Virus record (IMG/VR): IMGVR_UViG_3300047444_000577
Location: 34,441 to 98,440 of that record
Length of the DNA stretch: 64,000 nt
DNA from: a virus
Direction: 5' to 3' (one strand)
The notes beneath the pieces were generated by a model. It was not told the origin of the DNA and did not search any database. It saw only the letters and a program-made list of their open reading frames with translations. The number at the start of each line of letters is the position of its first letter. Within the stretch, counting starts at the first letter, position 1. The position numbers and the translations under genes were made by a program. Positions 5,623-58,057 of this stretch are shown one piece after another.

Positions 5623-8055
5623 TCAGGAAAGGTTGCCCAGCGGGATCTCTGCGTCGACGCTGAAGAGGTCACCTGTAGCGATGGCTGCGGCATCGTGCGA
5701 GGTACCGACCGCGTCACTCCAGTACAAGGACACGGTGCCGTCCGTGTTCAGTGCCATGACGACACGGGTGTTCTTAAGGACACCCGTGGATGTGCGGTTG
5801 GTGACGCTGAAGAAACGCTGTGTCTTAGTCCGGTACGCGGCTGGGACCGCAGTGGCGAAAACAGTGAAAGCAGACGCCGAGGTGAGCGCGCTTCCGGTGT
5901 AGTGGAAATTGCCGGTCCATCGGACGCCGTCCGTGGGGGTAAGGCGGTATCTCAGGGTGTCCGAGACGAAACCGGTGGCCGTTACCGTGGGGGTCTGCCA
6001 CCCGGCAGCAACCCCGGTCGAGTCGCACTTGATGACGTTGCCGGAGAGGTACAGGTCAGCCGCTGCGGACTGCAGAGTTTCGAGAAGAACCATACGCGGC
6101 GTGGTCGCCTGCCCCGTGGCAGTACCACCGACTCCGGACTGGTAGAACGCCTGGAGCCTGACAGGCACATCCTCGCCACCGTTGGGGCTGGTGAGGATCA
6201 GTTGCCCCGGGAAGTTGGGCGGTCCGAGGTTGCTGACGGAGGAGATGGAAGCACCCGTGGGTGTGATGGTGCTGGTGCCCGCGTTGTAGTCACCCCATGT
6301 GAGTTGGGCCCCGCCCATTTTGAGGTACGAGCCGCTGCTTCCCGGGACGTAGGAGATGATGTCGCCGTTCGCACCGCCGACCTCGTCCAGCACGTTTCCG
6401 CTGCTGTCGTAGACGTGCACTCCGGTGGAGTTCATGACGGTCCGAGCACCCGACGTACCGGTCTGCAGGGTCGCCCCGGTGATCGTCATGCCGTCGATGG
6501 CGGTGGCGACCAGGTGCGCGGTCTTGATCGAACCACCCTGGATCTGCGTTGACCCAAGCACCGGGCGGACGATGATGTTGTCGTACCAGGCGGTCACGGC
6601 CGTGGTGTTGAAGATCTGCAGTTTCACGTAGCAACTCACCGTCCCGGCCGGGGCGGTGTAGGTGCTGCTCATCGTGTGCCAGGCACCGTCCAGCGTCGCG
6701 GGCGCTTGGAGCGCGCCGTAGGAGATGTCCGCGCCGGAGGCGTTGACCCACGCGATGTAGATCTTCTGTACGACGCCAGTGGAGCCGGTCAGCACGGTGG
6801 CCGACCAGTCGGTCTGCAGGTAGAACTGGTCGCCGGGCGCGGCCGGGACCTTGGACAGCAGGGACAGTTCGATCGTGGTGGCCGAGCCGAAGGTAGCGTT
6901 GACCTTGATCGACTTCGCCCCGCCGTTGAACTTCGTAGTGTCGAGCGACCAGGAGGACCCGGCTGCGGCGACCTGCGCTGCACCTACCGCCCCCTCGAAC
7001 CCGCCGTCCGGCAGCATGTTGGAGGCCACCCCGGAGATGACCATCTTGGTGGCGTCGATGCTGCCTGCTGCGATGGCCACGGCCGTGATGGAACCGGCGG
7101 CTATCTGGTTGGCTGTCACCGAGTTGGCCGCCAGGTCCGCCGTCCCCGCCTTCAGCGCGGTTCCCGAGGCGGTAGCGGATGCCGCGCTGGCGAAGCCGGT
7201 CTGGGAGACGGCGATCAGTCGGTAGAAGTAGGCACTGCCGTAGTTCTGCACCGAGTCGTAGACCCAGTCCGCACCGGTCAGTGTGGCCACCGTGCTGGGG
7301 CTGGTGAAGCCAGACGTGGTGTCCCGTTGGACCTGCACGTGATCGAAGAACGCGGGCATCGGGAAGCCGGAGTGATCCAGTCCGTCCCAGGTGATGCGCA
7401 GTCCGCCCAGGACGCCCAGGACCACCGGGGTCGAGGGGACGGGCGGGGGCGAACTGGAGGAGCCGGTGATGATGTCGGCTGACGTCCACAGCGAGGTGTT
7501 GCCGCTGGTGTCGATCGCCTGCACGCGGACCGTGACGTCCACGCCGGTATGAAGCCCGTCGATGATCACCAGGGTGTCCTCGGTTACCGTCCCGCCGACC
7601 CAGGTGGTGCCGTCGTAGGAGGACTGCAGGAGGTAGTGCGAGAGGTCCGTGAGCGGGGTGCCGTCCTGGTTCTCGGTCGGCGCTACCCAACTGGCCTGCA
7701 CCCGGGCTTGGGTGATGCCCTCGGCGGTTGTGTAGGGCGACGTGGTGAGCGCCAGGGACGTCGGCTGCTTGGGTGGCTCATGGGTGATCAGCCCAAGGCC
7801 ACCGAGTTGGTCCTGGACGTTCTTGATACCCAGCGGGCTGTACACCGGCTGGGTGATGTCGCCGCCGGAGAACTGGACCCACAGGGTCCCGCCGACGGGA
7901 GGCACGGTGTTGGTGGGTGAAGAGGGAGATGCCCAGGCGCTTTCCGCACTGCCGAGGATCTGCGGGATGAGCATGGTGACGCGGGCCTGGTTGAGCGGGT
8001 CCGCGTTATTGGCGACGCTCCCCTGGTACATACCCAGGACAGGGCTAGCCGACAT
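5623..8055 (-). CDS. Baseplate spike (gp5/gpV OB-fold) fused to FnIII and CBM-like domains
   Basis: N-terminal YQGSVANNADPLNQARV...WA.P...P.VG..LWVQF.GGD..P OB-fold; FnIII-like segments; NMLPDGGFE CBM-like domain. Probable ATG at 8055. Confidence 0.8.
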   Translation of the reverse strand: MSASPVLGMYQGSVANNADPLNQARVTMLIPQILGSAESAWASPSSPTNTVPPVGGTLWVQFSGGDITQPVYSPLGIKNVQDQLGGLGLITHEPPKQPTSLALTTSPYTTAEGITQARVQASWVAPTENQDGTPLTDLSHYLLQSSYDGTTWVGGTVTEDTLVIIDGLHTGVDVTVRVQAIDTSGNTSLWTSADIITGSSSSPPPVPSTPVVLGVLGGLRITWDGLDHSGFPMPAFFDHVQVQRDTTSGFTSPSTVATLTGADWVYDSVQNYGSAYFYRLIAVSQTGFASAASATASGTALKAGTADLAANSVTANQIAAGSITAVAIAAGSIDATKMVISGVASNMLPDGGFEGAVGAAQVAAAGSSWSLDTTKFNGGAKSIKVNATFGSATTIELSLLSKVPAAPGDQFYLQTDWSATVLTGSTGVVQKIYIAWVNASGADISYGALQAPATLDGAWHTMSSTYTAPAGTVSCYVKLQIFNTTAVTAWYDNIIVRPVLGSTQIQGGSIKTAHLVATAIDGMTITGATLQTGTSGARTVMNSTGVHVYDSSGNVLDEVGGANGDIISYVPGSSGSYLKMGGAQLTWGDYNAGTSTITPTGASISSVSNLGPPNFPGQLILTSPNGGEDVPVRLQAFYQSGVGGTATGQATTPRMVLLETLQSAAADLYLSGNVIKCDSTGVAAGWQTPTVTATGFVSDTLRYRLTPTDGVRWTGNFHYTGSALTSASAFTVFATAVPAAYRTKTQRFFSVTNRTSTGVLKNTRVVMALNTDGTVSLYWSDAVGTSHDAAAIATGDLFSVDAEIPLGNLS

Positions 8056-9193
8056 TGATGTCCTCCAGAATGCTGGACTCCCAGAACTGCTTGTTGCGCA
8101 GCACTGCTGGCACGGTGTCAAACTTGAAGCGCTTATTGACATCGCTCTTAAATGTTACCGAGTAGGGCTGGTCTCTTTCCGCATCAATGGTCGTGGTGAA
8201 AAGCAGCCCGCTATTGGTTTTGTCGCGGTTTATGAGGTGCTTCGTCGAGGTGACCAGCCAGCGTCCGCGCATATCCGGGGAAACAGAGGCCCCACCAATT
8301 CCCACCAGGGATCCTGGTATGACCTTGGCGGTGCCGTACACCTCCGCCCGCATCGTGATCCAGCCGCTCGACGCGCGCGTGCGCGCGTCCATCAGGGCCT
8401 GCGCGTCGGCGTAGTTGTTCACCGCGCGCGACGTCGTGATCGAATTCAGGAACGTGGCCGTACCGGCAGCGGCAGAGGACGACGCCTTGATGGCCTTGCC
8501 TGTGCGCGCGTCCACCCCGGATATCGTGCTGGTGCCTGTCGTCCCCGAGGCGCGGGGAACCATCGTCCCTGCCAGGATCGACAGGTTCTGCAGGGTGTCG
8601 TAGATCCCCGGCTGCTGGCTCCGGGAGAACACCGGGATGTCCTGCACGGGCTGGCCCAGCAGCAGGATGCGCGGATCCAGGAAGTAGAGAGTCGCCCCCT
8701 CCACCCAGCAGTTGAACCCCACCTCGTCGGCCAGGTCCTGCAGCAGCTCGAAGTCGGACTGCCCGCCCTGCGCCCAGTACGTGAGCCGCCGGGCCGATGG
8801 AGAGATGACCGTGCGCAGCCCATTGGCCCGGCCCACCTGCCGCGCGATGGAGGTCGGGCTGACGTTCTTCCACGACCGCGTGCGCTGGGTGTTCAGCGGC
8901 AGTGTGGTGCCGATGCACACATACCGGGTCGACACCGACCGCGAGCCGTTCGAGGACAGCCCGTTGGAGTGGTGCACGTACCCGTACCAGCGCACGATGT
9001 CGTTGGGGCTGCGACCGTAGTCCAGCACCACCGGGGTCAGCTCGGCGTAGGCTCTCTTCGCGGCGGAGGTGACCACGTCCACGATGGCCATGGAGTGCAC
9101 CCCGTATCCCTCGCGGACCTCCACGCGGGAGACGTAGTCGGCGATGCGGTCCGTACCGATGGTCAGCCGGACGACGGGCGGTTGCTCAGACAC
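8045..9193 (-). CDS. Baseplate hub / late control gpD-like protein
   Basis: AQGGQSDFELLQDLADEVGF..WVEGATLYF motif; position between the LysM-like and spike genes. Confidence 0.8.
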   Translation of the reverse strand: MSEQPPVVRLTIGTDRIADYVSRVEVREGYGVHSMAIVDVVTSAAKRAYAELTPVVLDYGRSPNDIVRWYGYVHHSNGLSSNGSRSVSTRYVCIGTTLPLNTQRTRSWKNVSPTSIARQVGRANGLRTVISPSARRLTYWAQGGQSDFELLQDLADEVGFNCWVEGATLYFLDPRILLLGQPVQDIPVFSRSQQPGIYDTLQNLSILAGTMVPRASGTTGTSTISGVDARTGKAIKASSSAAAGTATFLNSITTSRAVNNYADAQALMDARTRASSGWITMRAEVYGTAKVIPGSLVGIGGASVSPDMRGRWLVTSTKHLINRDKTNSGLLFTTTIDAERDQPYSVTFKSDVNKRFKFDTVPAVLRNKQFWESSILEDINVG

Positions 9194-13394: not shown

Positions 13395-14246
13395 CAGATC
13401 CCCCGCACTGATGTACAAGGGGACCTCCTTACCGCACGCTTCATGCGTGAACTTGATGTCATTGTACTGAGGGCCGGGTTGCTTTTGCTCAATGGCATCC
13501 AGGATCGACCGGCGGTCGACGATCCCCAGAGAGCGCGCGAATTCAGCATTGCTGCTGACTGCCGTCTCGGTGCCATTTGCCGTGACGACGGATATCAGAC
13601 ACCGGGAAAGCAGAAGGGTGTCCTGCTCGGACGCGGTGGTGCGCTCGGCGACAGCCAGTACAGCGTCCTGGTCCGAGCCGACGGGGAGCCGGACGAACGC
13701 CTTTCTTCCGTTGCGCAGGGGCACCTCGAAGATGCGCTGGGAGGGGTCGTCCATGCGGCGCACGGGGATCTCGTCGAGCGTGACCGACAGCCGGAACTCC
13801 TCGCCGCAGTGCATGCAGGAGAACTTGTCCCAGACGATCTCGTCGCCGAAGGTGGCGCGCCGGATCTCCAAGAGCAGGTTGTCCCGGTCGCCGAGCAAGA
13901 GGTTGCTGAGCACGGACTGGCTGGCCTGCTGATCGCCGATCGAGACAGTCCCGCAGGCCAGGAGCGTGGAGACGAACTTACCCAAACCGGCCTGCCTGGC
14001 CTTGGCGATGGCTTCCTCGTCTGCGCCGGTCAGTTCGCGAACCTCGGCGTCGTACCGAACTGAGGCGAAGTCCCCACCCGAGACGTAGCCTCCCGGCAGG
14101 CGGAAACTGCCACCTGCCGGGAGGGGGATCTCGGGCTTGACGACCTGTCCCTCCCCGTTCTGCATCGCCGCCGAAATAGCGGCATTGGCGAGACCGGGGT
14201 TCATGAGGGGGTTGGTGTACCCCCCGGTATGAAGGTCGTTAGCCAC
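13380..14246 (-). CDS. Tail assembly chaperone / baseplate hub assembly-like protein
   Basis: VRELTGADEEAI, GDRD.LLLEIRRATFG and CxxC motifs; lies between the tube and tape measure genes. Confidence 0.7.
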   Translation of the reverse strand: MANDLHTGGYTNPLMNPGLANAAISAAMQNGEGQVVKPEIPLPAGGSFRLPGGYVSGGDFASVRYDAEVRELTGADEEAIAKARQAGLGKFVSTLLACGTVSIGDQQASQSVLSNLLLGDRDNLLLEIRRATFGDEIVWDKFSCMHCGEEFRLSVTLDEIPVRRMDDPSQRIFEVPLRNGRKAFVRLPVGSDQDAVLAVAERTTASEQDTLLLSRCLISVVTANGTETAVSSNAEFARSLGIVDRRSILDAIEQKQPGPQYNDIKFTHEACGKEVPLYISAGDLFQGL

Positions 14247-17460: not shown

Positions 17461-19401
17461 CTAGACGGGGTACCAGACACCGCCGATGGACGACAGCGTC
17501 ACATGCTGCCCGGGGGTATTCAGCACATACGTGCCCACCGTTCCCCCGATGGTTTCGCCGGACGCCGCATTGAGGGTGACCGTATTGGCGGTCGCGTCCT
17601 TCTTGACCACCCGGTATTCCATCGGAGCCGACACGGCCGTAGGAACACTGACAGTCAGGTTCCCTCCGGAGGCGTCCACCCCCAGCGTCCGGTCGATCGC
17701 GTTGAGCGTGGCAGCGGCGTTGGTGGTGCGGGTGCTGTTGGGCAGCTTCCCGTTGGTCTGCAGCATCCCGCAGGCCGGGTAGGTCAGGTTGAACAGACTC
17801 GGATCGAACATACCGAACCAAGTGACATGCCCCAGTGCGGCAGCCATCGTCCCGGCGGAGTCGGCGTCGATCGTGGGGTTGGCTGACTCCGTGTCCAGGA
17901 CGCCGACGGTGAGGAAGGGGCCATAACCCTCGGATCCCTGTCCGCGCAGGTAGATCTGACGAGAACACGCCTCAATGCTGGCGTGGTTGACGACGATGCC
18001 GTGGGTGGCCCCCACACTCCCCCAGTAGGTGCCCTCCGCCACCAGCCCCGCCCAGTGGTACAGCAGCCTGATGGAGGTGACGTACGTGTGCTCGGTGGCC
18101 CACAGTCCATAGGTGAAGCCACTGATCGTGACGTCGTCGACCATGCAGCGGTCGTTGTTGCCCGAAGCGGGCATCAGCACACCCGCGCACAGCCCCGTGC
18201 CCAGCAGGCTGGAGTTGGCGAAGTCGTTACCTGCCACCGTGCCGGTGGTGCCGATACCGACACGCCGCAGGCCCAGGTTGGCGATACCCCGGCCGTCGAT
18301 GCCGGAAGGGTGCAGACCATACGTGGTGTGCGGGACCAGGATCGTGATGTCCTCGAAGTCCACCGCGAGGTTGGAGAACACGCCAGGTGCCTGCCCGTAC
18401 CCGTTCGTCGGGGTGGGACCACCGATCACGGATATGTATCCGTTGGCGTTGATCGCAGTGCTCTGCGCACCGGGGCCGGAGAACGGGGGGAGGAACGACA
18501 CCAGGGTGGAGCCGCTGAACTGCGGGACGGTCGCGTTCCAGTGGGGGACGGCGCAGCCAATGCCGAAGCCCTTCCAGCGCAGAGCGTTCTTGTCGAGCGT
18601 GTCCAGGTTGTTCGGCAGCGTGATCTGCGCGTTGCCCTTGGTGGTGCCTCCCGTCACCGGCTGGCCGTCGATGCCGTAGAACTGGCCTCCTGTGGGGGGC
18701 GGTACCAGGATCGTGGCAGTCTTGGAGTTGGCCACGGCCCAGGCGTAAGCGGCGTCAGCGCAATTCTGGAAGGCCGCGCGGTCGCCCGTTGCGATCAGCA
18801 CCCGAGCACCGGTCACGGTCACCGCCGCGCTGAGGGAAAGCGTGACGGATGAGGGACTGATGTACTGGGTGATCTGCGCGACGTGGGAGACGACACCCAC
18901 CCCGGCAGCACCGTGGACGATGACCCACTGGTTGACCGACTGCGGCGTGAAGGGGGCGCTACTGGGGAGGTTGAGTACGTTGGTCAGAGAGTTGATGCCC
19001 GCGTCCATGTAGATGCGGCCATCACCCTTGGCCCCGTAGTCCAGGACGCTGAACTCCCAGGGCCGGATCTTGGAGTACCTGGTCGCCGCGTCCGCCTTGG
19101 CCGCAGCGATGTCGGCCAGTTCCTGGGTGCCATCGACCTTGCTGCTAGCCAAGCCTGAGACAGTGGTGTGAAGCCCCGCCAGGTCAGCAGCCGTGGTGTT
19201 GTGACTGCTCTGCAGAGCAGCGACGTCAGCGGCTTCCTGCGTTGTGTCTATCTTGCTGGTGGCCAGGCCGGTCACCGTCGTATGAAGCCCGGCGAGGTCG
19301 GCGGCCGTGGCGATCTCGTTGTTGTCCAGGGTGGTCAGGTCGGCGTTCAGCGCGACGTCCCAGCCGGTGGAGCCCTTCGCGGGCAGCGACACATTGCTCA
19401 T
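17461..19401 (-). CDS. Beta-helix (pectin-lyase-like) spike/fibre protein
   Basis: FSVLDYGAKGDG motif and beta-helix-like body; tandem TAADLAGLHTTV..LA.SK.D..QE.AD.AA repeat; ATG at 19401. Confidence 0.7.
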   Translation of the reverse strand: MSNVSLPAKGSTGWDVALNADLTTLDNNEIATAADLAGLHTTVTGLATSKIDTTQEAADVAALQSSHNTTAADLAGLHTTVSGLASSKVDGTQELADIAAAKADAATRYSKIRPWEFSVLDYGAKGDGRIYMDAGINSLTNVLNLPSSAPFTPQSVNQWVIVHGAAGVGVVSHVAQITQYISPSSVTLSLSAAVTVTGARVLIATGDRAAFQNCADAAYAWAVANSKTATILVPPPTGGQFYGIDGQPVTGGTTKGNAQITLPNNLDTLDKNALRWKGFGIGCAVPHWNATVPQFSGSTLVSFLPPFSGPGAQSTAINANGYISVIGGPTPTNGYGQAPGVFSNLAVDFEDITILVPHTTYGLHPSGIDGRGIANLGLRRVGIGTTGTVAGNDFANSSLLGTGLCAGVLMPASGNNDRCMVDDVTISGFTYGLWATEHTYVTSIRLLYHWAGLVAEGTYWGSVGATHGIVVNHASIEACSRQIYLRGQGSEGYGPFLTVGVLDTESANPTIDADSAGTMAAALGHVTWFGMFDPSLFNLTYPACGMLQTNGKLPNSTRTTNAAATLNAIDRTLGVDASGGNLTVSVPTAVSAPMEYRVVKKDATANTVTLNAASGETIGGTVGTYVLNTPGQHVTLSSIGGVWYPV

Positions 19402-23935: not shown

Positions 23936-24781
23936 TTACGAGTACAGTCCACGCTGGTTACCGGCCGACTGGCCGATCCCCAACTGGCCCCGAATCTTGG
24001 CGTATTCCGACATCGGCATGTCCTTCAGGTCGCTGACGGAGTACGACTTGTGTCCCGGTTCAGAGTCCATTGGTCCAGTCGTGGCATATCCCGTAGGGCT
24101 GACTCCACGCATCTGCGAGCGCTGCTGAATCGCAGCCTGCTGAACAGACTCAAGAATAGCCTGAGTCTTTCCCTTGAGGGTATTCAGGCTTTCCTCGACC
24201 TGCTCCGGCGAATTGCCGGTCACGAGGTCGAGAAGTTCTGGGGCGATGTTGTCCTGCTCCTCGCCGACGCGGCGCTGGATGTAGGACTGCAGGGCGTTGA
24301 ACTCCTGCTCCTTCGCGAAGAGGGCGCGCTCGTTCTCGCGATCCGCCTCGAACTGGGCGAAGCGGCTGTTCCACTCCGCCTCCTTGGCCGCCAGGAGGTC
24401 CTTGGCGGACATCTCCTGCTCGGCCTGAGTGCGGGCGGCCTCCTGGGCCTGGCGCTGCCGCTCTGCCTCGGCCTCCTGGGCCTCCTCCCGCGCCTTGCGC
24501 TGGGCCTCGATCTCGTCCAGGAACTTCTTGTTCTGGGTCTCGACCGTGTCCAGGCGCTTGTACAACTTGTCCTTCTCCTCCTGCCGCGCCCGCTCGATGT
24601 CCGCAGCAGTGAAGCGCGGCTCAGCGGGGGCCGGAGTCGGCGGGGGGACGACCGGGATGGTGATGACCGGCTCGCCGGGCTCAGGTGCGCCGCCAGCGAT
24701 GTTGTAGATCGGCGAGCCGTTCTTGCGGTGGCCCAGCACGGTCATGGCGGGCAGGGAAATGCCCGAGGTATGAAGCGGCAT
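23936..24781 (-). CDS. Capsid scaffolding protein
   Basis: Coiled-coil, E/Q/A-rich protein between portal and capsid; FTAADIERARQEEKDKLY. Confidence 0.8.
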   Translation of the reverse strand: MPLHTSGISLPAMTVLGHRKNGSPIYNIAGGAPEPGEPVITIPVVPPPTPAPAEPRFTAADIERARQEEKDKLYKRLDTVETQNKKFLDEIEAQRKAREEAQEAEAERQRQAQEAARTQAEQEMSAKDLLAAKEAEWNSRFAQFEADRENERALFAKEQEFNALQSYIQRRVGEEQDNIAPELLDLVTGNSPEQVEESLNTLKGKTQAILESVQQAAIQQRSQMRGVSPTGYATTGPMDSEPGHKSYSVSDLKDMPMSEYAKIRGQLGIGQSAGNQRGLYS

Positions 24782-31409: not shown

Positions 31410-31571
31410 ATGAACCAGACCGAAGAGCGCACCGACCGACTTCATACCTACGCGGCTCCCAACCAGCCGCGCGTGACCGTGAGCTGGAAGACCCGCGAGT
31501 GGAGCAACGCCGACCGGGACAAGTTGGCCCGGACGCTCTTCGGCCCACGCCCCGACGGTCGGTCTCACTGA
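31410..31571 (+). CDS. Small protein upstream of the serine recombinase (possible directionality factor)
   Basis: 53 aa MNQTEERTDRLHT...; -35 TTGACA near 31360; function inferred from position only. Confidence 0.45.
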   Translation: MNQTEERTDRLHTYAAPNQPRVTVSWKTREWSNADRDKLARTLFGPRPDGRSH

Positions 31572-34216: not shown

Positions 34217-34543
34217 TCAGAGGTGGACGTCATAGAAATTCTCCAGGACGCAGTCAGGTACCTCGTCGAAACGCTTGGTCTCGCGGATGTGCTCTTGGCT
34301 CATGGCGTCCTCACGCCCTCGCGTCGCCGTGAGCAGAGCCTCCTCCGCCGTCCGGCCGGTTCTGCGCCAGCGGCCGAGAACTATCCCGTAGCCCCGGCCC
34401 AGGTGCACGACCAGGGATCGGGACGTTCGGTACGGCGGGTCGAGTTCTTCGGTCGACGCGGTATGAAGGAAAGGCGTTTCGGGGACCAGCCTTACCGGGT
34501 GAAAGAAGAGCGGCGTCAGTGGGATATCGCGGGCGTGTGGCAT
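34217..34543 (-). CDS. Hypothetical protein
   Basis: RBS GAGG; contains the CTTCATAC motif. Confidence 0.5.
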   Translation of the reverse strand: MPHARDIPLTPLFFHPVRLVPETPFLHTASTEELDPPYRTSRSLVVHLGRGYGIVLGRWRRTGRTAEEALLTATRGREDAMSQEHIRETKRFDEVPDCVLENFYDVHL

Positions 34544-36664: not shown

Positions 36665-36922
36665 TTAGATATGAAGACCGGATTTCTTGAGCTGATTCCT
36701 GACCTTGATCCAGCCCGGCCCGCAGCCGGTGAGCCCGCTGATGATGGCGGTCACACCGTCCGGAGACTTCCACTTGACGTGATTCCCTCCGGTGATCGTC
36801 ACCTCCCACCCCGCCTTCCTGGCCTGCTTGGCCGCCTTCTCCAACTCCTTGTCTGCGCCGAGCCTTGATCCTTTTACGCCCACTGGCAGCTCCCATCTCG
36901 TAGCAACTCCTGCTGAAATCAA
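36665..36922 (-). CDS. HicA-like toxin / dsRBD-fold RNase
   Basis: ARKAGWEVTITGGNHVKWKSPDG motif. Confidence 0.65.
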   Translation of the reverse strand: MISAGVATRWELPVGVKGSRLGADKELEKAAKQARKAGWEVTITGGNHVKWKSPDGVTAIISGLTGCGPGWIKVRNQLKKSGLHI

Positions 36923-39782: not shown

Positions 39783-40013
39783 ATGTCCGAGATCGAGAAC
39801 CTGTACGACCGGCCCATCGCGGGCCCGTTCCAGGCCTTGTGCGGCGGCGGGACGAACGACGGGTCCATGGAGGACTGCCTGGACGTGGCCCCGCTGCAGG
39901 GCGGCGGCTACGCCCTCAAGGACACCAAGCTCGGGGACGCCAGCCCGGTCCTGCGCTTCACCAAGGCCGAGCTGATCGCGGCGGCGCAGAAGCTCGCCGA
40001 CATGCCCGCCTGA
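39783..40013 (+). CDS. DUF397 family protein
   Basis: CGG....EDCLDVA.L.GG.YALKDTK.....LRFT.AE; RBS GGAGG. Confidence 0.8.
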   Translation: MSEIENLYDRPIAGPFQALCGGGTNDGSMEDCLDVAPLQGGGYALKDTKLGDASPVLRFTKAELIAAAQKLADMPA

Positions 40014-40104
40014 TCTGATCCACCGCAAGTAGCGCGGGGTGCCCTCACCACTAATGAGGGCACCCCGCCCCTTGAGGTTACCCGCCGACCCCCGGAGCGT
40101 TCCT

Positions 40105-40995: not shown

Positions 40996-41049
40996 CGACA
41001 CGGCTCGACTCGCTCACACCACCCGCTCTGAACTGGGAAGCTATCCGCT

Positions 41050-41529
41050 ATGCCGCCGCAGCAACACGCCGATGACATCGACTGGGACGCCTACATGCAG
41101 GGGCCTCCGGCCTCCGGCGTCCACTGGCACGGCTTCCTCTGGAAGGGGGAGGCCGCAAGGATCTTCAGCTTCAAGCACCAGGCGGAGCGCACAGCGGGTA
41201 CGCCGGACTTCGCGGGGTCGAATACGCCCCCGGAGATGACAACGCATCATCTGCTGAAGCCGCATCTCGTCAAGGCTACGTTCACGAATCCGACCGAGGC
41301 AGCCGCTTGGATGCGTCAGCAGTGGGAGGCGGACCCTCCGCTGGAGACGTACAAGAATCCCGACAGTTGCCAGAAGTTCAGCCGACGCATGGCCGAGCTG
41401 GGCAAGGACGTGGTCTGGTCGTGGGACTGGCCGAGGCTGGGTGACAACACAACCGTCCGCGTCTACATGATCACATGTCCGAGTGAGTCGGATCCGGGCA
41501 TCCGCTGTCCGGCTCCACCGAGGCGCTGA
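41050..41529 (+). CDS. Hypothetical protein
   Basis: ORF with HWHGFLW, followed by a hairpin at 41547-41592. Confidence 0.55.
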   Translation: MPPQQHADDIDWDAYMQGPPASGVHWHGFLWKGEAARIFSFKHQAERTAGTPDFAGSNTPPEMTTHHLLKPHLVKATFTNPTEAAAWMRQQWEADPPLETYKNPDSCQKFSRRMAELGKDVVWSWDWPRLGDNTTVRVYMITCPSESDPGIRCPAPPRR

Positions 41530-43275: not shown

Positions 43276-43793
43276 AGCCACTCCCCCGTCACGACACCGC
43301 GCATGTCGGCGGGCCGGTAGGTGTCGGGCTTGAGGATCTTCCCGTCACCGCGACGCAGCACCGTACCGTCAGGGCGGACCTTGCTCATGTTCGAGCGGTG
43401 GACCTCGGCGAAGGCCGCCTCCAGCGGGATCTCCAGCAGGTCGGCCGTACCGTAGATCACGTACAGCAGGTCGGCCAACTCCTTGGCCAACTCCTCGTAG
43501 TAGCGCGGGGCCTCGGGAGTGGCCTCGTCCCGTCCCGGCAGGAACGGGCTGGTCGAGGACTCTGCGACCCACGCGTCTACGATCTGCGCCTTGCGGTGGT
43601 CCAGCAGGGCCTCCAGGACCTCCTGGGATTCCTCCGAAATGAGTGCGGAGCGCAGGGAGACCAGGTCGTCCCGCCCGGCCTCGTCACGTTCGATGAAGGG
43701 GGTCTCCCCCACCGCCCGGTGCCACTCGCGCAGCGCCTTCATGGGGTGGTGGGGCTGGGTATGAAGCCGGGTTCTCGGTGTGGCTCGGGACAC
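43272..43793 (-). CDS. MazG-like nucleotide pyrophosphohydrolase
   Basis: LISEESQEV...ELAKELADLLYVIYG...EVHRSNMSK. Confidence 0.85.
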   Translation of the reverse strand: MSRATPRTRLHTQPHHPMKALREWHRAVGETPFIERDEAGRDDLVSLRSALISEESQEVLEALLDHRKAQIVDAWVAESSTSPFLPGRDEATPEAPRYYEELAKELADLLYVIYGTADLLEIPLEAAFAEVHRSNMSKVRPDGTVLRRGDGKILKPDTYRPADMRGVVTGEWL

Positions 43794-44383: not shown

Positions 44384-44872
44384 CTAGGCAGCCTGCAGTT
44401 CCGCGAGGTCCCCGGGATCGACGGCCAGCGGCTGCTTGTTCTCGAAAAGAGTCACGCCGTTCCGGCTGTAGGCCAGGTCGACGAGTTGGGCGCACTGCAG
44501 CCGGTCCTGCCGGGCGATCCGCTCGTTGATCCACGGAATCCAGATCCCGAAGAACCGCAGGCCGAGCGCGACGTCGTCGAGCCAGCCGTAGCCGATGCCC
44601 TTGCCGTTGTTGGCGGTGGTGAACCCCAGCGCCGTCCGCCAGATCTGCTCCCCCACACCCTCGGGGAGCACGGTATGAAGGTTGTAGCGAGCGTTCGGGT
44701 ACTTGCTGATGTGCCCGATCCGCGCCCCGCCGGGCTGCGCCTCGACGATGAAGCCCCGGGGGCCAACGATGAAGGCGTGGTTGTAGCGGGAGAACGTCAG
44801 CAGCCGGATCGCCCATCCGATGAATCCACCGGTCGCGGTGACGCCGTAGGATCCGACCGGCGGGTTACTCAT
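44384..44872 (-). CDS. Permuted papain-like NlpC/YaeF amidase
   Basis: YNHAFIV..IVEA, GYGW and LQCAQLVDLAY (His before Cys). Confidence 0.75.
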   Translation of the reverse strand: MSNPPVGSYGVTATGGFIGWAIRLLTFSRYNHAFIVGPRGFIVEAQPGGARIGHISKYPNARYNLHTVLPEGVGEQIWRTALGFTTANNGKGIGYGWLDDVALGLRFFGIWIPWINERIARQDRLQCAQLVDLAYSRNGVTLFENKQPLAVDPGDLAELQAA

Positions 44873-45286: not shown

Positions 45287-45559
45287 CTACGCGTGCGCAA
45301 CAGGGGTCTCCTGCTCGGTATGAAGCGGCACGACGTTGGAGGGGGCCTCCTCGCTCTGGTGCTCCGGCAGCGGCTGGAAGCGGTCACGCAGCATCAGCGG
45401 CGTGGCGATGTTGACGATGACCCGGTCGAGTGCGGACGCGGAGGCCCTGTCACCGGCTGCGTGTGCGTCGTCCCGGGACCGGAGCAGATGGGTGATCAGA
45501 TCCCTGGCGTGCAGGTAGTCGCCATCGACGTCGTGGATGAGGGTGCGAATGGAAGACAT
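45287..45559 (-). CDS. Hypothetical protein
   Basis: RBS AAGGAG, ATG at 45559. Confidence 0.6.
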   Translation of the reverse strand: MSSIRTLIHDVDGDYLHARDLITHLLRSRDDAHAAGDRASASALDRVIVNIATPLMLRDRFQPLPEHQSEEAPSNVVPLHTEQETPVAHA

Positions 45560-45578: not shown

Positions 45579-46805
45579 TCAGAGCCAGACGCGGTACTCG
45601 GAGGTAACGCGTCCCTTGTCCGGGTTGATGAAGTGCAGGCGCTGGGAGGGGTCTCCGGTCGCGGCAACGAACTCGTGGGCGTAGATGTTGTCCGACTCCG
45701 GGCTGCCGGTCATGAAGACCGAGCCGCCGTTGGCCAACTGCAACTGCATCGACTGGTGGTAGTGGCCGATGTAGAGGTCACGGAATGCCGGGAGGACGCC
45801 AGAGGCCCACTGGTTGGCCTTGCGCAGGATGCCGTAGGCGGGGATGTTGCCGCCGAACGACTTGATCTCGTCGCCGTGGATCGCCATGGCGGTGTAGTTG
45901 CCGATGGTGAAGTGCTGGTACCAGTCGCCGGAGGTCTGGAAGTCGACCAGGCGCGACTCGTCGGCCAGTCGCTGGCGGACGATGTTGTAGACCATGCGGT
46001 CCACGTTGTCGGACGCCTTGATGCCGTCGCCCTTCTTGCCCAGGCGGCCGTGGTTGCCGTATTCGGCGACGACACGGACCGTCTTGTACATGCCGAGGGC
46101 CTGTCGGATGGTCCAGATCATCAGGTCGGCGACGTCGAACATCTGCTCGTAGAGCGTGCCGTCCAACTCCCAGACCTGGCCCGGGAAGATCCCGACGCCC
46201 TCGACCATGTCCCCGGTGAACAGCAGCACGGCCTCGTCGACAGGGTGGTCGGCCCGCTGGATCTCGGTGATCGCGTGCGCCTTGTCGACGTACTTGCCGA
46301 CCCGGTGGCGCATGATCTGACGGTCGTAGGTCTCGGTGCGCTTACCGCCCTGCCAGTCCGTCATATGCCACAGGGCGACCTCGGGGCTGTTGTTCCGGGA
46401 GACCTTCCACGGCGTGGTGTACTCGGTCTCCCCCACGTAGCGGGCCGCGTCGGTGGCAGCGCGGTAGACGGCGTCGATGTACTCGTCCCCGCGCGCCTTC
46501 GCCTTGCTGTACGCCTTGAACAGCCGCCGGTTGTCCGCCTCCAGGGCCGCGATGCGCTCGGTGGTCTCGTCGGCCACTGCCTCGTCTTCGCCCTGCGCGG
46601 GCTCGGTATGAAGCGACTTGGCTCCGATCGACACCAGGACCGCGCGCTTGTAGCCGTTCTTCGTGCGCCAGCGGCGGACGGACGACTCCGTGGTCTCGAC
46701 GTCGTTGAAGGTCAGGTCGTCGGCGGCCTGCTTGTGCCCCACGTTCGGGTCCATGAGGATCTCCCGAACCCAGTCGATGTCCTCGTTCTCGGCCAGTGTG
46801 CTCAA
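45579..46805 (-). CDS. Calcineurin-like metallophosphoesterase with an N-terminal HTH
   Basis: TDWQGG, GDMVEG, GNHG, HGD and GHYH motifs. Confidence 0.85.
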   Translation of the reverse strand: MSTLAENEDIDWVREILMDPNVGHKQAADDLTFNDVETTESSVRRWRTKNGYKRAVLVSIGAKSLHTEPAQGEDEAVADETTERIAALEADNRRLFKAYSKAKARGDEYIDAVYRAATDAARYVGETEYTTPWKVSRNNSPEVALWHMTDWQGGKRTETYDRQIMRHRVGKYVDKAHAITEIQRADHPVDEAVLLFTGDMVEGVGIFPGQVWELDGTLYEQMFDVADLMIWTIRQALGMYKTVRVVAEYGNHGRLGKKGDGIKASDNVDRMVYNIVRQRLADESRLVDFQTSGDWYQHFTIGNYTAMAIHGDEIKSFGGNIPAYGILRKANQWASGVLPAFRDLYIGHYHQSMQLQLANGGSVFMTGSPESDNIYAHEFVAATGDPSQRLHFINPDKGRVTSEYRVWL

Positions 46806-47792: not shown

Positions 47793-47887
47793 CCGGGATG
47801 CAGTATGTACCGGCCTGTCACGCAGTACCGGAAAATGCGGGTGGGATAGGTTTAAGGGGAGGACTGCTACCCACCAGTTAGTCCCCG

Positions 47888-47960
47888 CTCCCCGACCTGG
47901 ACTCGAACCAGGAACGCACGGATTAACAATCCGCAGCTCTGCCAATTGAGCTATCAGGGA
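47888..47960 (-). tRNA. tRNA-Asn(GTT)
   Basis: TCCCTGATAGCTCAATTGGCAGAGC..GCGGA-TTGTTAA-TCCGT..GGTTCGAGTCC..TCGGGGAG cloverleaf. Confidence 0.95.
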
Positions 47961-48204
47961 ATACGTACGTCGTGGCCCAGCTCTACTGCTGCGTCGCGGT
48001 GTACGTGGTGAAGAAGTCGGTGGCTCTCCTCGATCAGCGTCATGTGGTCCCGGAGTTCATCACGGAGTTTGCGGACCCATGTCGTGCCGATGAGGAGAGC
48101 CAGGACTGCGGTAATCGCGCTTGCTGCCAGATTCGACATTATCGAGTCGTTGTGAACGAACTGCAGAAGCGTTGTCACCTTGTCCATGCACTGAGTGTAG
48201 ACGG

Positions 48205-48286
48205 TCCCCGAGACGAGATTCGAACTCGCAAGTCTTTCGACGGCGTCGTTTGAGGACGCTGCGTTTACCGTTTTCGCCACTCGGGG
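48205..48286 (-). tRNA. tRNA-Leu(CAA)
   Basis: CCCCGAG/CTCGGGG acceptor stem; GCGTC-CTCAAAC-GACGC anticodon arm; long variable arm; GTTCGAATC T-loop. Confidence 0.9.
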
Positions 48287-48328
48287 AATGCCAGGGAGAT
48301 CAGCGTACCGACCCCCTTTGCGGTATTG

Positions 48329-48982
48329 CTACTTCACGGTGAAGCGGCCGTACGACACGCTACGGCTCCAGGGTGCGTAGAGGCCCACTCCGCGCCCGGG
48401 GCGCTCGGCCTCCAGCCAGGTGTGGCTGTTGACGTAGATGGCGACGTGGTAGACGTAGCCGCTGGAGTCGTGGACGAACACCAGGTCGCCCGGCTTCGGG
48501 CTGCTGACGTGCTGGGCGGCCCTGTACTGGTCGTCAGCGACACGGGGGATCCGCTTGCCGAGGTGGGCGAACACGTACTGGGTGAGTCCACTGCAGTCGA
48601 AGCCGGACCGGCTTTCACCGCCCCAGACATAGCGGATCCCTCGCAAGGTCTCCGCGTAGGCGACGACCTTCGAACCCGAGGTGGGTGCCGGAGTCGGCTT
48701 GGGCTTCGGCTTGGGCTTGGGCTTCGGGGTGGTACCGCTGGACCCGGAAAGCAGAAGGCGCTCCCCGGGGTAAATGCGGTTGGGGTTGAGCAGGTGGTTG
48801 ATGGAAGCCAGGTGCTCCCAGGTGGTGTGGTGGGTGAGCGCGATTCCACTGAGGGTGTCACCGCTCCGGACAGTGGCGTACTGGGACGTGCTGGGTGCGT
48901 GTGCCTGCGCCTCCGCCGCAGGGGCAATCGGAATGACTGCCAGGGCAGCAGCCAGCGTGAGTCCTGCAATCCGCTTGTTCAT
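48329..48982 (-). CDS. Secreted LysM plus NlpC/P60 cell-wall hydrolase
   Basis: Signal peptide; TVRSGDTLSGIA LysM; PK linker; YVWGG...FDCSGL...HVAIY. Confidence 0.92.
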   Translation of the reverse strand: MNKRIAGLTLAAALAVIPIAPAAEAQAHAPSTSQYATVRSGDTLSGIALTHHTTWEHLASINHLLNPNRIYPGERLLLSGSSGTTPKPKPKPKPKPTPAPTSGSKVVAYAETLRGIRYVWGGESRSGFDCSGLTQYVFAHLGKRIPRVADDQYRAAQHVSSPKPGDLVFVHDSSGYVYHVAIYVNSHTWLEAERPGRGVGLYAPWSRSVSYGRFTVK

Positions 48983-48991
48983 GAGAGCACT

Positions 48992-49108
48992 CCTGCGCCT
49001 GCGAGATTAGGTGACGGGCTCGGGAAAGTGCGCTCCCTACCGCTAAATACTCGGATTCGCCCCAGTGCTGCGTTTCGGTCTCCCGCCCCTGCTCGGGGTT
49101 GATTACAG
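48992..49108 (-). promoter_or_regulatory. ydaO/yuaA-type c-di-AMP riboswitch
   Basis: AGGGGCGGGAGACC...TGGGGCGAATC...GTAGGG...TTTCCCGAGCCCGTCACCTAA, ending at the hydrolase RBS. Confidence 0.75.
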
Positions 49109-49145
49109 AGTTTGTCCAGGAGCAGGGTTCGGCGTCTGGACAAAG

Positions 49146-49219
49146 TCGGGATGACAGGAATCGAACCTGCGACTTTCCGCTCCCAAAGCGGACGCTCTAC
49201 CAAGCTGAGCTACATCCCG
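49146..49219 (-). tRNA. tRNA-Pro(TGG)
   Basis: CGGGATGTAGCTCAGCTTGGTAGAGC..TCCGC-TTTGGGA-GCGGA..GGTTCGATTCC..CATCCCGA. Confidence 0.95.
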
Positions 49220-49650: not shown

Positions 49651-50022
49651 TCAGCCGCCGTGGGCTTCCTGGTACTCCACGAGCAGGGCCTGCGGCAGCC
49701 GACCAGCCTCCGGAACCTCGCGACCCTGCGCCTGCAGCCAGAGCCGAACGTCCTTGGTGGTGAACGGCCTGCCGTCCGCACCCTGGATCGCCTTTCGGAC
49801 CGCCGTACCGTTCCGCTGCTGGGTGTCGCTGGCGATGCTCGTGTACGGCTGCAGGGCAGCGATCAGTGACTCCTGGTGCTCCGCGCACAGGTCCATGAGG
49901 TAGCGGGTGGTGCCCACAGTGACAGGAGTCGGCTCATTGTTCGGCACCGGAAGACCGCAAGCTTCTGTCTTCTTCCGCCTTAGGACCTTGAAATCGCAAG
50001 CCTTGCTGATGATGTCTGCCAT
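49651..50022 (-). CDS. lsr2: Lsr2-like nucleoid-associated protein
   Basis: RYLMDLC..H...L.AALQPY dimerisation motif; DVRLWLQAQGREVPEAGRLP...EY DNA-binding domain. Confidence 0.8.
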   Translation of the reverse strand: MADIISKACDFKVLRRKKTEACGLPVPNNEPTPVTVGTTRYLMDLCAEHQESLIAALQPYTSIASDTQQRNGTAVRKAIQGADGRPFTTKDVRLWLQAQGREVPEAGRLPQALLVEYQEAHGG

Positions 50023-52457: not shown

Positions 52458-53210
52458 CTAGAAGTCGCCGGGGGCGACCTGCAGGCAGGTCAGTCCGAGG
52501 GTGTTTCGCCACATCTCGACCACCTGGTCACGGTCGTCGAGAACGAGCCGGACGTTGTACTTGCCCTGGATGTCCCGGCGGTAGATCTCCTCCTTGACGA
52601 TGAAGTCCTTTCGGCCGTCCTTCCGTGGCCGCATCAGGAGTTGCAGGTCAAGGACCCATTCCCCCAGGTGCTCGCGAAGCCACTCCTGCGTGTCGTCGAA
52701 GCAGACGACGTCTCGGCCGGACATGAAGATGATCTCGGCGTGGGATCCCCAGTACAGGGTCTTGACCAGTTCGACGACGTCCGTGATGGGCTCGTCCCCT
52801 CCGACCTTCCGCCAGTCGAACGGCCCCCGGTCCACCCGCCGGGCCAGCGTGCCGTCGATGTCCACCAGGATCGCTTCAGGGAGTTCCTCGACTGCGGTGG
52901 GTTCGGTCACGTTCTTCTCCTCGGTCGGGGTGTGGCAGCAGGTGTCGCAGATGTGCACGGCGAGAACGCTCACGTCCGGATCCCAGCCGTGGATCTGCTC
53001 CTTGAAGGCGAGGTCGTCCGGGTCGGGGTGGGCGTAGCCGTGCGGGCAGACGCGCTCCATCAGCATCAGCGCCGAGTTGAAGTGCTGCGGGAAGTCACGC
53101 ATCCCGTGGTTGGAGGGGTTGTGCACCGCGCAGTACGGACCGATACACACGCCAGCGGGGTGGGAGTAGATCTGCTGTCCGCCCTCCAGAACCGTGTACT
53201 CCAGCGTCAT
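52458..53210 (-). CDS. HAD-family polynucleotide 3'-phosphatase (PNKP-like) with a Cys/His-rich N-terminus
   Basis: ILVDIDGTLA, FMSGR, LLMRP..D.RKD..VK, LDDRDQVVEMWR..GL.CLQVA.GDF. Confidence 0.85.
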   Translation of the reverse strand: MTLEYTVLEGGQQIYSHPAGVCIGPYCAVHNPSNHGMRDFPQHFNSALMLMERVCPHGYAHPDPDDLAFKEQIHGWDPDVSVLAVHICDTCCHTPTEEKNVTEPTAVEELPEAILVDIDGTLARRVDRGPFDWRKVGGDEPITDVVELVKTLYWGSHAEIIFMSGRDVVCFDDTQEWLREHLGEWVLDLQLLMRPRKDGRKDFIVKEEIYRRDIQGKYNVRLVLDDRDQVVEMWRNTLGLTCLQVAPGDF

Positions 53211-53283
53211 GCCGTCCCCTCGTTGTGCAACGGCTCCTCGGTATGAAGGTCGTCCAGCATGTCGGTATCAACGGGGCTGGTCA

Positions 53284-53514
53284 TCAGGCGCGCTGATCCA
53301 GCGCCTTGACGGCGTGCTCGGCGAACGCGGTCCAGAAGGTGTCCGGAAGGTACGGGATCCCGAACCAGGCCTTCGTGGTTGCGGCGAGGACCTCGACGGC
53401 CGTGGCCCGCTTGGCTGCCTCGGCCTCCAGCCACGACTGCGAGGCGGACACGTTCGGGACGGCGAGACTGTCGAGGTGCATCACGGGGCGCGTGTCGGTG
53501 GCGGTGTTGGTCAT
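53284..53514 (-). CDS. Hypothetical protein
   Basis: RBS GGAGG. Confidence 0.55.
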   Translation of the reverse strand: MTNTATDTRPVMHLDSLAVPNVSASQSWLEAEAAKRATAVEVLAATTKAWFGIPYLPDTFWTAFAEHAVKALDQRA

Positions 53515-54806: not shown

Positions 54807-55270
54807 ACGGGACCGCCGAAGAGGTCGTCCAGCAGCGGCCTCTGCCCTTCGATGGCCGACTCCATCGCCTCGACGCGCTCCGGGTACTCCTCCAGCGCAA
54901 GCGCGACGGCACGGCCCCATGGAATCCCGTTGTCCTGGTGCTCCTGCGCGATGGCCAGCAGCGACTCAGTGGCCAGGTCGAGTCGGAGGATGCCGTCCGT
55001 GATCAGACCGGACACGTCCGTCTCTCTGTTGGCCACGGCCAGGTCGAGGACCTCGTAGGGAACACCCTTGTAGTGCAGGACGTGACCGATCAGGCACGAC
55101 GGGCAGCGCGTGTCCTCGTTGAAGTAGACGCAGCCATCGGCCGGACGGTGGTAAACCGTCTGCGCACCGTTCTCGTCGACCGCGCGATGGAGCAGCGACT
55201 TGGCCTCATCGAAGGACAGTTCCAGCGGTGCCCACTCCCAAGCGGGCCGGGTATGAAGCGTGTTGGTCAT
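54803..55270 (-). CDS. Hypothetical protein
   Basis: RBS AGGAG; CVYF...PSCLIGHVL..AQEHQD.G.PWG. Confidence 0.65.
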   Translation of the reverse strand: MTNTLHTRPAWEWAPLELSFDEAKSLLHRAVDENGAQTVYHRPADGCVYFNEDTRCPSCLIGHVLHYKGVPYEVLDLAVANRETDVSGLITDGILRLDLATESLLAIAQEHQDNGIPWGRAVALALEEYPERVEAMESAIEGQRPLLDDLFGGPV

Positions 55271-56128: not shown

Positions 56129-56509
56129 TCAGCGGCCGATCACTTCCACGTGCACGCTGTTCCCAGATCTCGGGTGGAGCGTGATGCTGCTGCTGGCGTG
56201 GATCTCCAGGGTGTCGTCGTCCATCAGGCGCACCAGGAAGTAGCGCCATCGGTCGACGTCCTGCTTCGGCTTGTACCGGAACTCGACCATCGGGCGGTTC
56301 GGTACCTGCCGCCGGTTCGCGCTGTAGGGGTCGATGATGATCTCGGAGTCGTCGGGCCCGGTGTTGATGAGCCCACGCGCGACCGCCAACTCTCGGTTCA
56401 GCGCGAGAATTCGTTCCCCGCGAGCCCTGAGTTCCGCTTGGGCCCACCTGGGCAGCCGGTCGAACCTGTCGGCCGCAGACTGAGCAGCGGCCGAAGTATG
56501 AAGCGTCAT
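56129..56509 (-). CDS. Hypothetical protein
   Basis: RBS GGGGAG. Confidence 0.6.
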   Translation of the reverse strand: MTLHTSAAAQSAADRFDRLPRWAQAELRARGERILALNRELAVARGLINTGPDDSEIIIDPYSANRRQVPNRPMVEFRYKPKQDVDRWRYFLVRLMDDDTLEIHASSSITLHPRSGNSVHVEVIGR

Positions 56510-57624: not shown

Positions 57625-58057
57625 GTTCGTCCTCCGGGTATGCGTCGTAGTCGTCGTAGTCGTAGCCCTCGGGTTCGTCGCCCTGGGCCATCTGGTCGCG
57701 GTACCGCTCCAGGGCGGAGAGGGTGACGTCCGGGTCGAAAAGCACGGATGAGTCTTCCACGCCCAGCAGTTCGCCCGCCCGCTCCTCCACGCTGGCCTTG
57801 TGGGCCTCGGTATGAAGCGGCTGCGGGGCCAGTCCCGAGAGGATCAGAACCTGCTCGGCCAACTGGCGGGAGAGCGCCTTCGAGACGACCTGGATGTAGG
57901 GATGGTGCTCACCGCCGACGAACTCCGGGGCGGCCTCTTCGGTGTCGCGCAGTGCCTCTATCGCCTGCGTGAGCAGTTCGACGTTGTAGTGACTCACGTG
58001 TCCTCCTGATGTGGGGATCATATGTTCGCTATCGGTTCCGAACCGATACTCAGACAC
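57617..58057 (-). CDS. Hypothetical protein (true start probably near 57996)
   Basis: RBS AGGAGG before GTG AGT CAC. Confidence 0.55.
   Translation of the reverse strand: MSEYRFGTDSEHMIPTSGGHVSHYNVELLTQAIEALRDTEEAAPEFVGGEHHPYIQVVSKALSRQLAEQVLILSGLAPQPLHTEAHKASVEERAGELLGVEDSSVLFDPDVTLSALERYRDQMAQGDEPEGYDYDDYDAYPEDELV

Follow-up and report, generated by a model that had tools for sequence, protein, structure and literature searches.

In phage T4, RegB cuts GGAG in the Shine-Dalgarno (SD) sites of early mRNAs and RegA binds about 30 mRNA initiation regions; to our knowledge, no specificity types exist among the targets of either. Cluster A mycobacteriophages carry stoperators, the 13-bp double-stranded sites of the L5 gp71-type repressor (PMC6550527, PMC9283540), which lie mostly in short intergenic spaces, double as the early-promoter operator, and number dozens per genome, oriented with transcription (PMC6550527). 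Repressor-stoperator systems were also reported for R4-like Streptomyces phages (PMC10276819). Here we analyzed a 64,000-nt stretch of phage DNA (the window; bases 34441-98440 of the 98,440-bp virus record IMGVR_UViG_3300047444_000577, hereafter G000) in which an 8-mer, GTATGAAG, recurs inside genes. An earlier note on this DNA had compared the word to stoperators, to Chi/KOPS-like signals, and to RNA-level sites for protein binding or processing. We find that the word belongs to a dispersed, asymmetric, selected nucleic-acid signal, as that note had supposed, and that a hairpin follows it at a fixed spacing. Of the three comparisons the RNA-level one fits best, the Chi/KOPS one fails, and the stoperator one holds for numbers, polarity, and variants but not for anatomy. 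Taken together, the observations point to an undescribed genome-wide control signal, probably on the phage mRNA.

Judged from its genes and relatives, G000 is a temperate Streptomyces myophage: it has genes for a large serine integrase and a tail sheath, is related to Streptomyces phage BRock and its kin (the nearest cultured relatives, ~48% sheath identity), and is matched by a collinear prophage in Streptomyces sp. NPDC002088 (70-80% DNA identity). The window also encodes a baseplate, portal, and large terminase, together with the replication genes for a DnaB-like helicase, a DnaG-like primase, a family A DNA polymerase, an SNF2 helicase, and ribonucleotide reductase; nearly all genes lie on the minus strand. 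The prophage (G005) was used as a 75%-identical comparison genome, and the other genomes compared were G008-G011, which share the word (H-type, as are G000 and G005), G012-G015, which have a variant of it (N-type), G001, and the more distant G002.

Word enrichment, reading frame and polarity

The earlier note had placed the word at 14 positions of the window, and all are exact, 13 on the plus strand and one on the minus strand (31440-31447). Its rough expectation of less than one copy per strand is borne out by dinucleotide shuffles of the window, which give 0.45 copies on average and 3 at most. Across the whole 98,440-bp record, GTATGAAG occurs 31 times forward and once in reverse, and no other 8-mer of the genome comes close to its over-representation (31 versus 1.2-1.35 expected under Markov-2/3 models, p ~1e-31). 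The called coding sequences (CDS) hold 28 copies, versus 0.41 expected from a synonymous shuffle that keeps every protein and 0.18 from codon permutation within genes; the enrichment persists under codon and di-codon-type nulls, where the earlier note had allowed that it might disappear. No tripeptide of the proteome is more over-represented than Leu-His-Thr (30 versus 3.8 expected), and 27 of these 30 are written CTT CAT ACN, in agreement with the reading through the rare codons CTT CAT first noticed in the window.

The word signal is the phage's, not the host's, as Streptomyces sp. NPDC002088 has ~40 copies of GTATGAAG in its 106-kb prophage versus ~67, on both strands, in the remaining 10.6 Mb. 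A search of the published literature for the word itself turned up only primers. Other 8-mers of the whole genome are over-represented and strand-skewed as well, i.e., GATCTCGT (26 forward, 2 reverse), CTTGGCCA (22 and 2), and TCGGGGTC (24 and 1); their skew is probably codon-driven (for example, GAC GAG ATC).

Every copy had been described as lying on the coding strand, and the called CDS agree: the word reads CTT CAT ACN 27 times, takes the other two sense frames 0 and 1 times, and is never antisense. We also counted peptide-compatible places, i.e., those where the proteome could carry the word by synonymous change alone. The Leu-His-Thr frame uses 27/30 of them, the other sense frames 0/9 and 1/9, and antisense 0/12. 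The lone out-of-frame copy lies outside the window, is not conserved in the prophage, fits the chance expectation, and lacks a hairpin. Over nine genomes, the local maximum of GC content at third codon positions falls in the word's frame at 258 of 297 sites.

Word polarity follows gene direction, not DNA polarity. The sole opposite-strand copy (31440..31471, plus strand), noted earlier as lying in a plus-strand open reading frame (ORF), occupies codons 11-13 of a 53-aa ORF (31410-31571) upstream of the serine integrase, with a 7-bp hairpin 3 nt past the word. One reverse copy was found in each of the nine genomes examined, always of that genome's own word type, at codons 6-13 of this conserved small reverse-strand ORF beside the integrase, in frame and with its own hairpin. 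The other reverse-strand genes carry no site.

A second word, a hairpin and the gene starts

The exact codons are conserved. Of the 23 G000 sites that could be aligned to the G005 prophage, 21 keep the 8-mer, both wobble T's included, and around the kept words neighboring wobble positions and even residues vary; Leu-His-Thr kept by synonymous codons, which the earlier note had named as a refuting outcome, is not what the homologues show. At three places where the site is missing from one genome, the orthologue has Leu-His in preferred codons (CTG CAC NCN), and the H-type sites that were gained or lost are all in frame. The word is thus under selection at its synonymous positions.

The IMG/VR relatives G008-G011 (terminase identity 88%) have 32-39 copies of GTATGAAG plus one in reverse. 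Relatives G012-G015 (terminase 84-86%) have zero or one copy, because their top word by k-mer ranking is CTTAATACC (37/1, 27/1, 20/1, and 30/1 forward/reverse copies). In DNA identity to G000, two of them, G012 and G014 (~75%), equal the H-type sister G009. The second word reads Leu-Asn-Thr in frame at the same orthologous codons as the H word, with His and Asn exchanged, as in the orthologous pairs MTLHTSGISVPA versus MTLNTSGISVPA and ARLHTFGGRASGP versus ARLNTFGGRASGP; 26 site clusters hold both word types, and the two site types are CTTCATAC and CTTAATAC. Given that CTTAATACC sits at orthologous codons of equally close sisters, there are two specificity types, in which the base matters and the residue (His or Asn) is irrelevant to the proteins that host it. 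By this comparison of genomes, a single word base, C or A, has changed in concert at ~30 places. In more distant relatives (terminase <=73%, G002, BRock), enrichment of CTTNATAC was not found.

A hairpin directly follows the word. The 30-nt window starting at +6 folds at -10.1 kcal/mol, versus -6.3 kcal/mol for random windows (p=2e-36, n=173 sites, five genomes). Only windows that begin 6-12 nt into the site show this effect; the upstream 50 nt have slightly less structure than random windows. At 246 of 298 sites from nine genomes, pairing begins 0-3 nt past the 8-mer, most often 3 nt past it, which is +12 from the C of CTT and 5 nt after the NAU codon. Over the 298 sites the hairpin is GC-rich, with a median stem of 8 pairs and a median span of 21 nt. 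Stem sequences are unrelated from site to site, yet they are kept among orthologues, and the consensus-fold (alifold) energies of 17 clusters sum to -138, versus -29 and -54 in flanking control windows. The hairpin structure is therefore real.

Sites are also significantly close to gene starts, as the earlier note had suspected: 11 of 31 lie within 45 nt of a start where 3.4 are expected, and in a second set 15 of 39 versus 4.1, a three- to fourfold excess. They concentrate in the first ~15 codons of a gene, the last ~15 codons of the preceding gene, or a short coupled leader ORF. The usual layout is an SD sequence, a start codon, 1-4 codons, the word, and the hairpin, as at the M-x-L-H-T starts at 56496 and 24768. 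Ten short-ORF cases were found in the five genomes inspected, most with an SD of their own and a start 2-6 codons ahead of the word, and in all five genomes the short-ORF stop overlaps the next start (GTGA, TGATG, ATGA, TTGA). Two genomes have the word of the RecA-like gene in a fused N-terminus, and two others have it in a coupled leader ORF of 10 codons. None of the ~300 sites is in an untranslated context; an SD and a start codon accompany even the intergenic copies of the N type. No gene of G000 has more than one site (P=0.008), and the minimum spacing is >300 nt; site density is ~1 per 2-3 kb where early and replication genes lie, compared with ~1 per 8 kb among the structural genes. Word-bearing genes include those for DNA polymerase, primase, helicase, RecA-like protein, and ribonucleotide reductase.

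Sites in the window, neighboring genes and candidate readers

Apart from the copy at 31440, all sites of the window are on the minus strand; the energies given here are for the fold of +8..+43 relative to the word. The word occupies codons 3-5 (M-T-L-H-T) of a DUF7239 gene with an 8-bp hairpin (56469..56503, -16.4 kcal/mol), codons 5-7 (M-T-N-T-L-H-T) of a 155-aa ORF with a 7-bp hairpin (55230..55258, -12.0 kcal/mol), and codons 3-5 (M-P-L-H-T) of a 281-aa gene after the portal, again with a hairpin (24748..24775), whose G012 orthologue reads M-T-L-N-T. At codons 5-7 (M-A-N-D-L-H-T) of a T4-baseplate-like gene it is followed by a 7-bp hairpin (14206..14234), and at codon 168 of the 810-aa minor tail gene by an 8-bp hairpin (7523..7554, -14.0 kcal/mol). 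The site in the minor tail gene is orthologous in all nine genomes, as is that in the baseplate-like gene, where both word types are represented. A MazG/PRA-PH-like gene has the word at codon 10 with a weak local hairpin, conserved in G005 (43731..43766). At 53207..53284 a short leader ORF holds the word (53241-53248) and is 25 codons long from its first ATG or 17 from its second; sequence and three-frame translation place its start over the upstream stop (TGATGA) and its stop over the next start (ATGA).

In a 90-aa ORF, the word and hairpin (45299..45325) stand 12 codons ahead of the stop and 25 nt ahead of the next start. Another word, CTTCATACC (57810-57817), is at codon 61 of a 126-aa ORF, where the first paired base of the downstream hairpin comes 3 nt past the word (site 57794..57817, -11.2 kcal/mol). 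A 162-aa ORF has the word with an 8-bp hairpin, conserved in G005 (44646..44680, -17.0 kcal/mol), and a 408-aa ORF has word and hairpin (46590..46613), the word being kept at the orthologous place in the G005 prophage. Weak hairpins follow the copies at codon 39 of a 646-aa structural-region ORF (19258..19287) and in a 110-codon ORF missed by the gene caller (34436..34468). A near-cognate, CTTCATATC, forms the last three codons (L-H-I) of the HicA-like gene discussed below (36668..36676); in N-type sisters these codons read L-N-T or L-N-L.

Another sequence, TTATCGGAT(T/C)AGGAG, recurs directly ahead of several starts in G000 (genome 16943-17000, outside the window) and its sister genomes, namely those of the RecA-like gene and of a leader ORF ahead of the gene at genome 30824-31342. 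Its role may be that of a promoter, an operator, or an extended ribosome-binding site (RBS). The related CTATCGGATAG lies at about window 31600-31650, between the integrase and a tyrosine recombinase gene (30213-31292, minus strand) that is divergent from the large serine integrase (31686-33719, plus strand), so that one locus holds two recombinases. The stretch 37463-41529 is an island specific to G000 and missing from all sister genomes, and from its content it looks like a moron cassette: its minus strand encodes an XRE-type regulator (phrog_5823, 400 aa), and its plus strand has two small ORFs besides the genes for a DUF397-like protein and a JmjC/cupin protein. G012 (L144:11126-12235) and its sisters, not G000, encode a putative RNA ligase (KWDGS motif) in which a word site adjoins the motif and the C-terminal ~60 residues differ by word type.

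Comparison of the two types suggests that a lineage-specific trans-acting factor must exist, because host components cannot account for the C/A switch. The best lead is a candidate reader, a HicA-like 72-aa protein (36665..36883, minus strand). It matches Pfam HicA_toxin at E=6.6e-4, weaker than the curated cut-off. Its AlphaFold model (pLDDT 70) has the alpha-beta-beta-beta-alpha topology of double-stranded-RNA-binding-domain (dsRBD) type, and its top five Foldseek matches are all HicA chains, with weak scores (E 0.04-0.08, TM 0.5-0.6). A GGNH motif is invariant; in HicA toxins the catalytic His stands in a G-x-H context. The gene was found in all word-bearing genomes examined except the 72%-complete G015 and is missing from all word-less relatives examined, a pattern confounded by phylogeny. 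Among the multi-column ortholog groups of the 90 compared, the protein has the second-highest share of type-associated residues; the comparison yielded no clean separator of the types. The last codons of the gene are CTT CAT ATC in G000 and CTT AAT ACC in G012. No HicB partner was found beside it, and the product of the downstream gene (36252-36599), 115 aa long and highly conserved, has a hydrophobic and then a charged stretch and no Pfam match.

A ProQ_C-like 126-aa protein (59157-59537, minus strand; Pfam Phage_ProQ_C_like, E=7.7e-17) is present in the H-type G000, G005, and G009, and Pfam finds none in the N-type G012 and G014, a small sample of a hypervariable region. A protein with an Lsr2 DNA-binding domain (49651-50022, minus strand) is common to all word-bearing genomes and not found in BRock or G002. 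It was rejected as the reader, being shared by both types and in principle not strand-specific. Adjoining its gene are three tRNA genes (Asn-GTT, Leu-CAA, and Pro-TGG; 47887-49219). Phage tRNA supply was rejected as well, as tRNA-Asn(GTT) is present in all scanned genomes of both types. ARAGORN also calls an unusually long, 86-nt tRNA-His(GTG) in G009 (L156:1737-1822), G005, and G010, not in G000, G008, or the N-type genomes.

Proposed mechanism, rival explanations and known systems

The anatomy of the site suggests a single-stranded element, most simply in mRNA, and the frame lock, the leader ORFs, and the geometry together suggest that the ribosome takes part. We favor, with less than even confidence, a translation-coupled box-plus-hairpin element of the mRNA that is read by a lineage-specific factor. 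This cis-element on the coding strand would consist of an A/U-rich box of 9-10 nt, (G)CUU-[C or A]AU-ACC, and a GC-rich hairpin of ~8 bp and arbitrary sequence that begins 0-3 nt past the box, repeated ~30-40 times per genome in translated sequence, in one reading frame and mostly in early and replication genes. It would work on the mRNA while this is being translated. With CUU in the P site and the NAU codon in the A site, a stem that begins at +12 stands at the mRNA entrance of the ribosome; the foot of the hairpin would thus hold the type codon (CAU here, AAU in the sisters) in the A site, where a lineage-specific phage factor may act by arrest or cleavage. The outcome would be throttling or silencing of the gene and of the gene coupled to it, an immunity-like control of lytic genes over the whole genome with two specificity types. 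We propose that its function is global throttling or silencing of lytic genes, as an RNA-level counterpart of stoperators.

A bolder version, which we hold to be improbable, is ribosome-read superinfection immunity. Here a prophage factor, possibly the HicA-like protein, would arrest or cut lytic messages of its own type at the hairpin-paused CUU-NAU-ACC, and phages of the other type (His versus Asn codon) would be spared; each word would then mark an immunity group, spelled out in the codons of ~35 genes that changed together.

If the translation-coupled element exists, it would be a new layer of phage gene control, a short word and a hairpin in a quarter of the genes, addressable by one factor. 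It would also define immunity or compatibility groups among temperate Streptomyces phages. The concerted one-base switch is a clean natural experiment on the co-evolution of a reader with ~35 dispersed targets. It also shows that selection overrides codon preference and protein sequence at dozens of loci, forcing His or Asn into the word-bearing replication proteins. The two words could also serve as a small, mutually orthogonal pair of regulatory tags in high-GC actinobacteria.

Several points weigh against this translation-coupled reading. The frame lock is partly trivial, as the other frames of the N-type word contain TAA or the near-forbidden TTA, and the H-type sites could have inherited their frame. 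About 60% of sites are away from any start. Compensatory pairs are few (6 in 116), so the support for the hairpin comes from conservation and position, not from covariation. The stems are almost wholly Watson-Crick, and a comparison of folding energy and G-U content in sense and antisense did not tell apart which strand folds; with both folds equally stable, the energy is silent on which strand folds and on whether it does so as RNA. The RNA level is one that we infer from anatomy. G001 has 8 in-frame H-type copies with no clear hairpin signal. The type switch requires a trans factor, and the reader searches over these genomes pinned down none. The HicA-like protein does not follow type cleanly, with an indel that groups one H genome with the N genomes, and known HicA toxins are reported to work without ribosomes.

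A real, if minority, possibility is that the same box and hairpin are read on the mRNA independently of the ribosome, by a lineage-specific RNA-binding repressor or endoribonuclease, comparable to T4 RegA or RegB, that recognizes the single-stranded box beside the stem. The frame lock would then be a by-product of coding constraint and inheritance, and the leader ORFs would be indel leftovers of N-terminal extensions. The box, the hairpin, and the less structured upstream flank would suit such a factor, as would the clustering at about -50 to +45 around starts, where a bound factor would block initiation. The TAA and TTA in the other frames of CTTAATAC offer it an explanation of the frame, the switch of the RecA-like gene between fused N-terminus and leader ORF resembles an indel event, and a HicA-like protein of dsRBD fold is encoded that tracks the word-bearing genomes (except G015) and has many type-associated residues. 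However, the other frames of the H-type word are codable, and of 18 free places only one is used, by a copy that is neither conserved nor hairpinned. H-type gains and losses are all in frame, the ~300 sites include no untranslated one, with an SD and a start even at the N-type intergenic copies, and the match of the spacing to ribosome geometry would have to be a coincidence.

The DNA-level alternative, a monomeric immunity repressor that binds the asymmetric word as double-stranded DNA and blocks RNA polymerase one-way to silence lytic genes in the lysogen, the words being two immunity groups, is unlikely. It would account for 30-40 sites per genome in a single orientation to transcription and with lineage variants, in temperate actinophages, which are the hallmarks of cluster A stoperators (PMC6550527, PMC9283540), and also for the reverse-strand copy that obeys gene direction and for the lack of sites in reverse-strand genes beyond the small ORF before the integrase. 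A protein that reads double-stranded DNA would, however, have no use for a hairpin that varies in sequence and keeps its spacing, the strict frame and the leader ORFs are left unexplained, and untranslated promoter DNA holds no copy, whereas in cluster A the repressor's site is also the early-promoter operator. These features together argue against a classical stoperator. In addition, the specific core is just 9-10 bp versus 13 bp, and a non-exhaustive search identified no cognate DNA-binding repressor.

Read in antisense, the site could be a factor-assisted terminator of antisense transcription that shields lytic genes from convergent or antisense transcripts, its RNA being the hairpin and then nnGGUAU(G/U)AAG. 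The hairpin is equally stable in antisense and there lies directly ahead of the box, as in an intrinsic terminator, and the polarity relative to genes would follow. Yet the tail lacks U-richness, terminators would not be expected to have an invariant tail with a type-specific base, and frame, start proximity, and leader ORFs are unexplained. This reading is very unlikely.

A polar DNA signal read by the direction of replication or translocation (Chi/KOPS type, lagging-strand priming, packaging, or a nicking site) is scarcely credible: the 8-mer length, ~97% strand bias, ~3-kb spacing, and the phage's own DnaB-like helicase and DnaG-like primase would suit it, but it explains neither the frame lock nor the leader ORFs nor the sister word, the host chromosome shows no enrichment, and the reverse copy sits in a reverse-strand gene in 9/9 genomes with all features of the other sites, so that Chi/KOPS, priming, and packaging are ruled out. 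A programmed frameshift cassette (shift site, 5-nt spacer, hairpin) yielding alternative or truncated products is just as hard to credit, although the site is in frame, the modal 5 nt from the NAU codon to the stem falls within the spacer range of known -1 frameshift signals, and tRNA-Leu(GAG) could re-pair from CUU to UUC in the H type: CUU-NAU lacks the X XXY YYZ heptamer pattern, the N type (UUA) does not allow re-pairing, many sites are at codons 3-5 of essential genes, and a shift to a stop is unsupported, with fewer early stops than random in the +1 frame and only the trivial N-word TAA in the -1 frame.

Four further candidates were rejected. Pairing with rRNA (16S, spacer, and the start of 23S covered) gave only G-U-rich matches of 7-8 nt. 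Antisense ORFs from the ATG inside GTATGAAG showed neither an upstream RBS nor a -10 in the position profile, and no consistent long ORF. Anticodon-loop mimicry (UUCAUAC) fails on its unpaired flanks. A trans-acting anti-word RNA was sought in the window, and the only one is the antisense of ORF 31410-31571; this ORF is conserved as a protein in five genomes and is for that reason more likely a normal target than an anti-word RNA source.

The translation-coupled element shares traits with several known systems. The lambdoid nut sites (boxA + boxB) occur once or twice per genome, in leaders, and the hairpin loop is their specific part. Like nut sites and HK022 Nun exclusion, the element has a conserved single-stranded box followed by a hairpin and would have a phage-specific reader protein; unlike them, it has 30-40 copies inside ORFs, a specific box, and a generic hairpin whose sequences are mutually unrelated, which does not fit nut-type antitermination. 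In P1/P7 c4 antisense RNA immunity, heteroimmunity comes through few matched base changes. The likeness is RNA-level immunity with types set by single bases matched between reader and targets; the differences are that no same-sense anti-word RNA was found besides the antisense of the small ORF before the integrase and that the C/A switch is not bridgeable by G-U wobble.

RelE, HigB, and YoeB are ribosome-dependent mRNA interferases, and such A-site nucleases read about one codon; frameshift and pause cassettes combine a shift site, a 5-9 nt spacer, and a stem. Our sites resemble both in being frame-dependent and in having the stem 5 nt past the A-site codon, a ribosome-stalling geometry, and differ in the 9-nt word, which is not slippery, and in that the sole nuclease-like candidate is HicA-like. 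With T4 RegB and RegA the element would share a phage factor that acts on a short RNA word near the starts of the phage's own early messages and shuts them off, although the T4 targets are untranslated or straddle the start codon, are degenerate, and need no hairpin; no homologue of RegB or RegA was seen in this phage, in an analysis that did not look for one. The resemblance to stoperators lies in dozens of copies of an asymmetric site in a temperate actinophage, oriented with transcription and differing between lineages (for stoperators, together with the cognate repressor), and the numbers agree (~20-40 copies in one orientation for stoperators; 31/1 in G000 and 32-39/1 in the sister genomes). 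Stoperators are double-stranded, mostly intergenic sites with no reading frame or adjacent structure, whereas the 9-10 nt core described here is always translated, with all copies in one frame within ORFs and followed by a hairpin.

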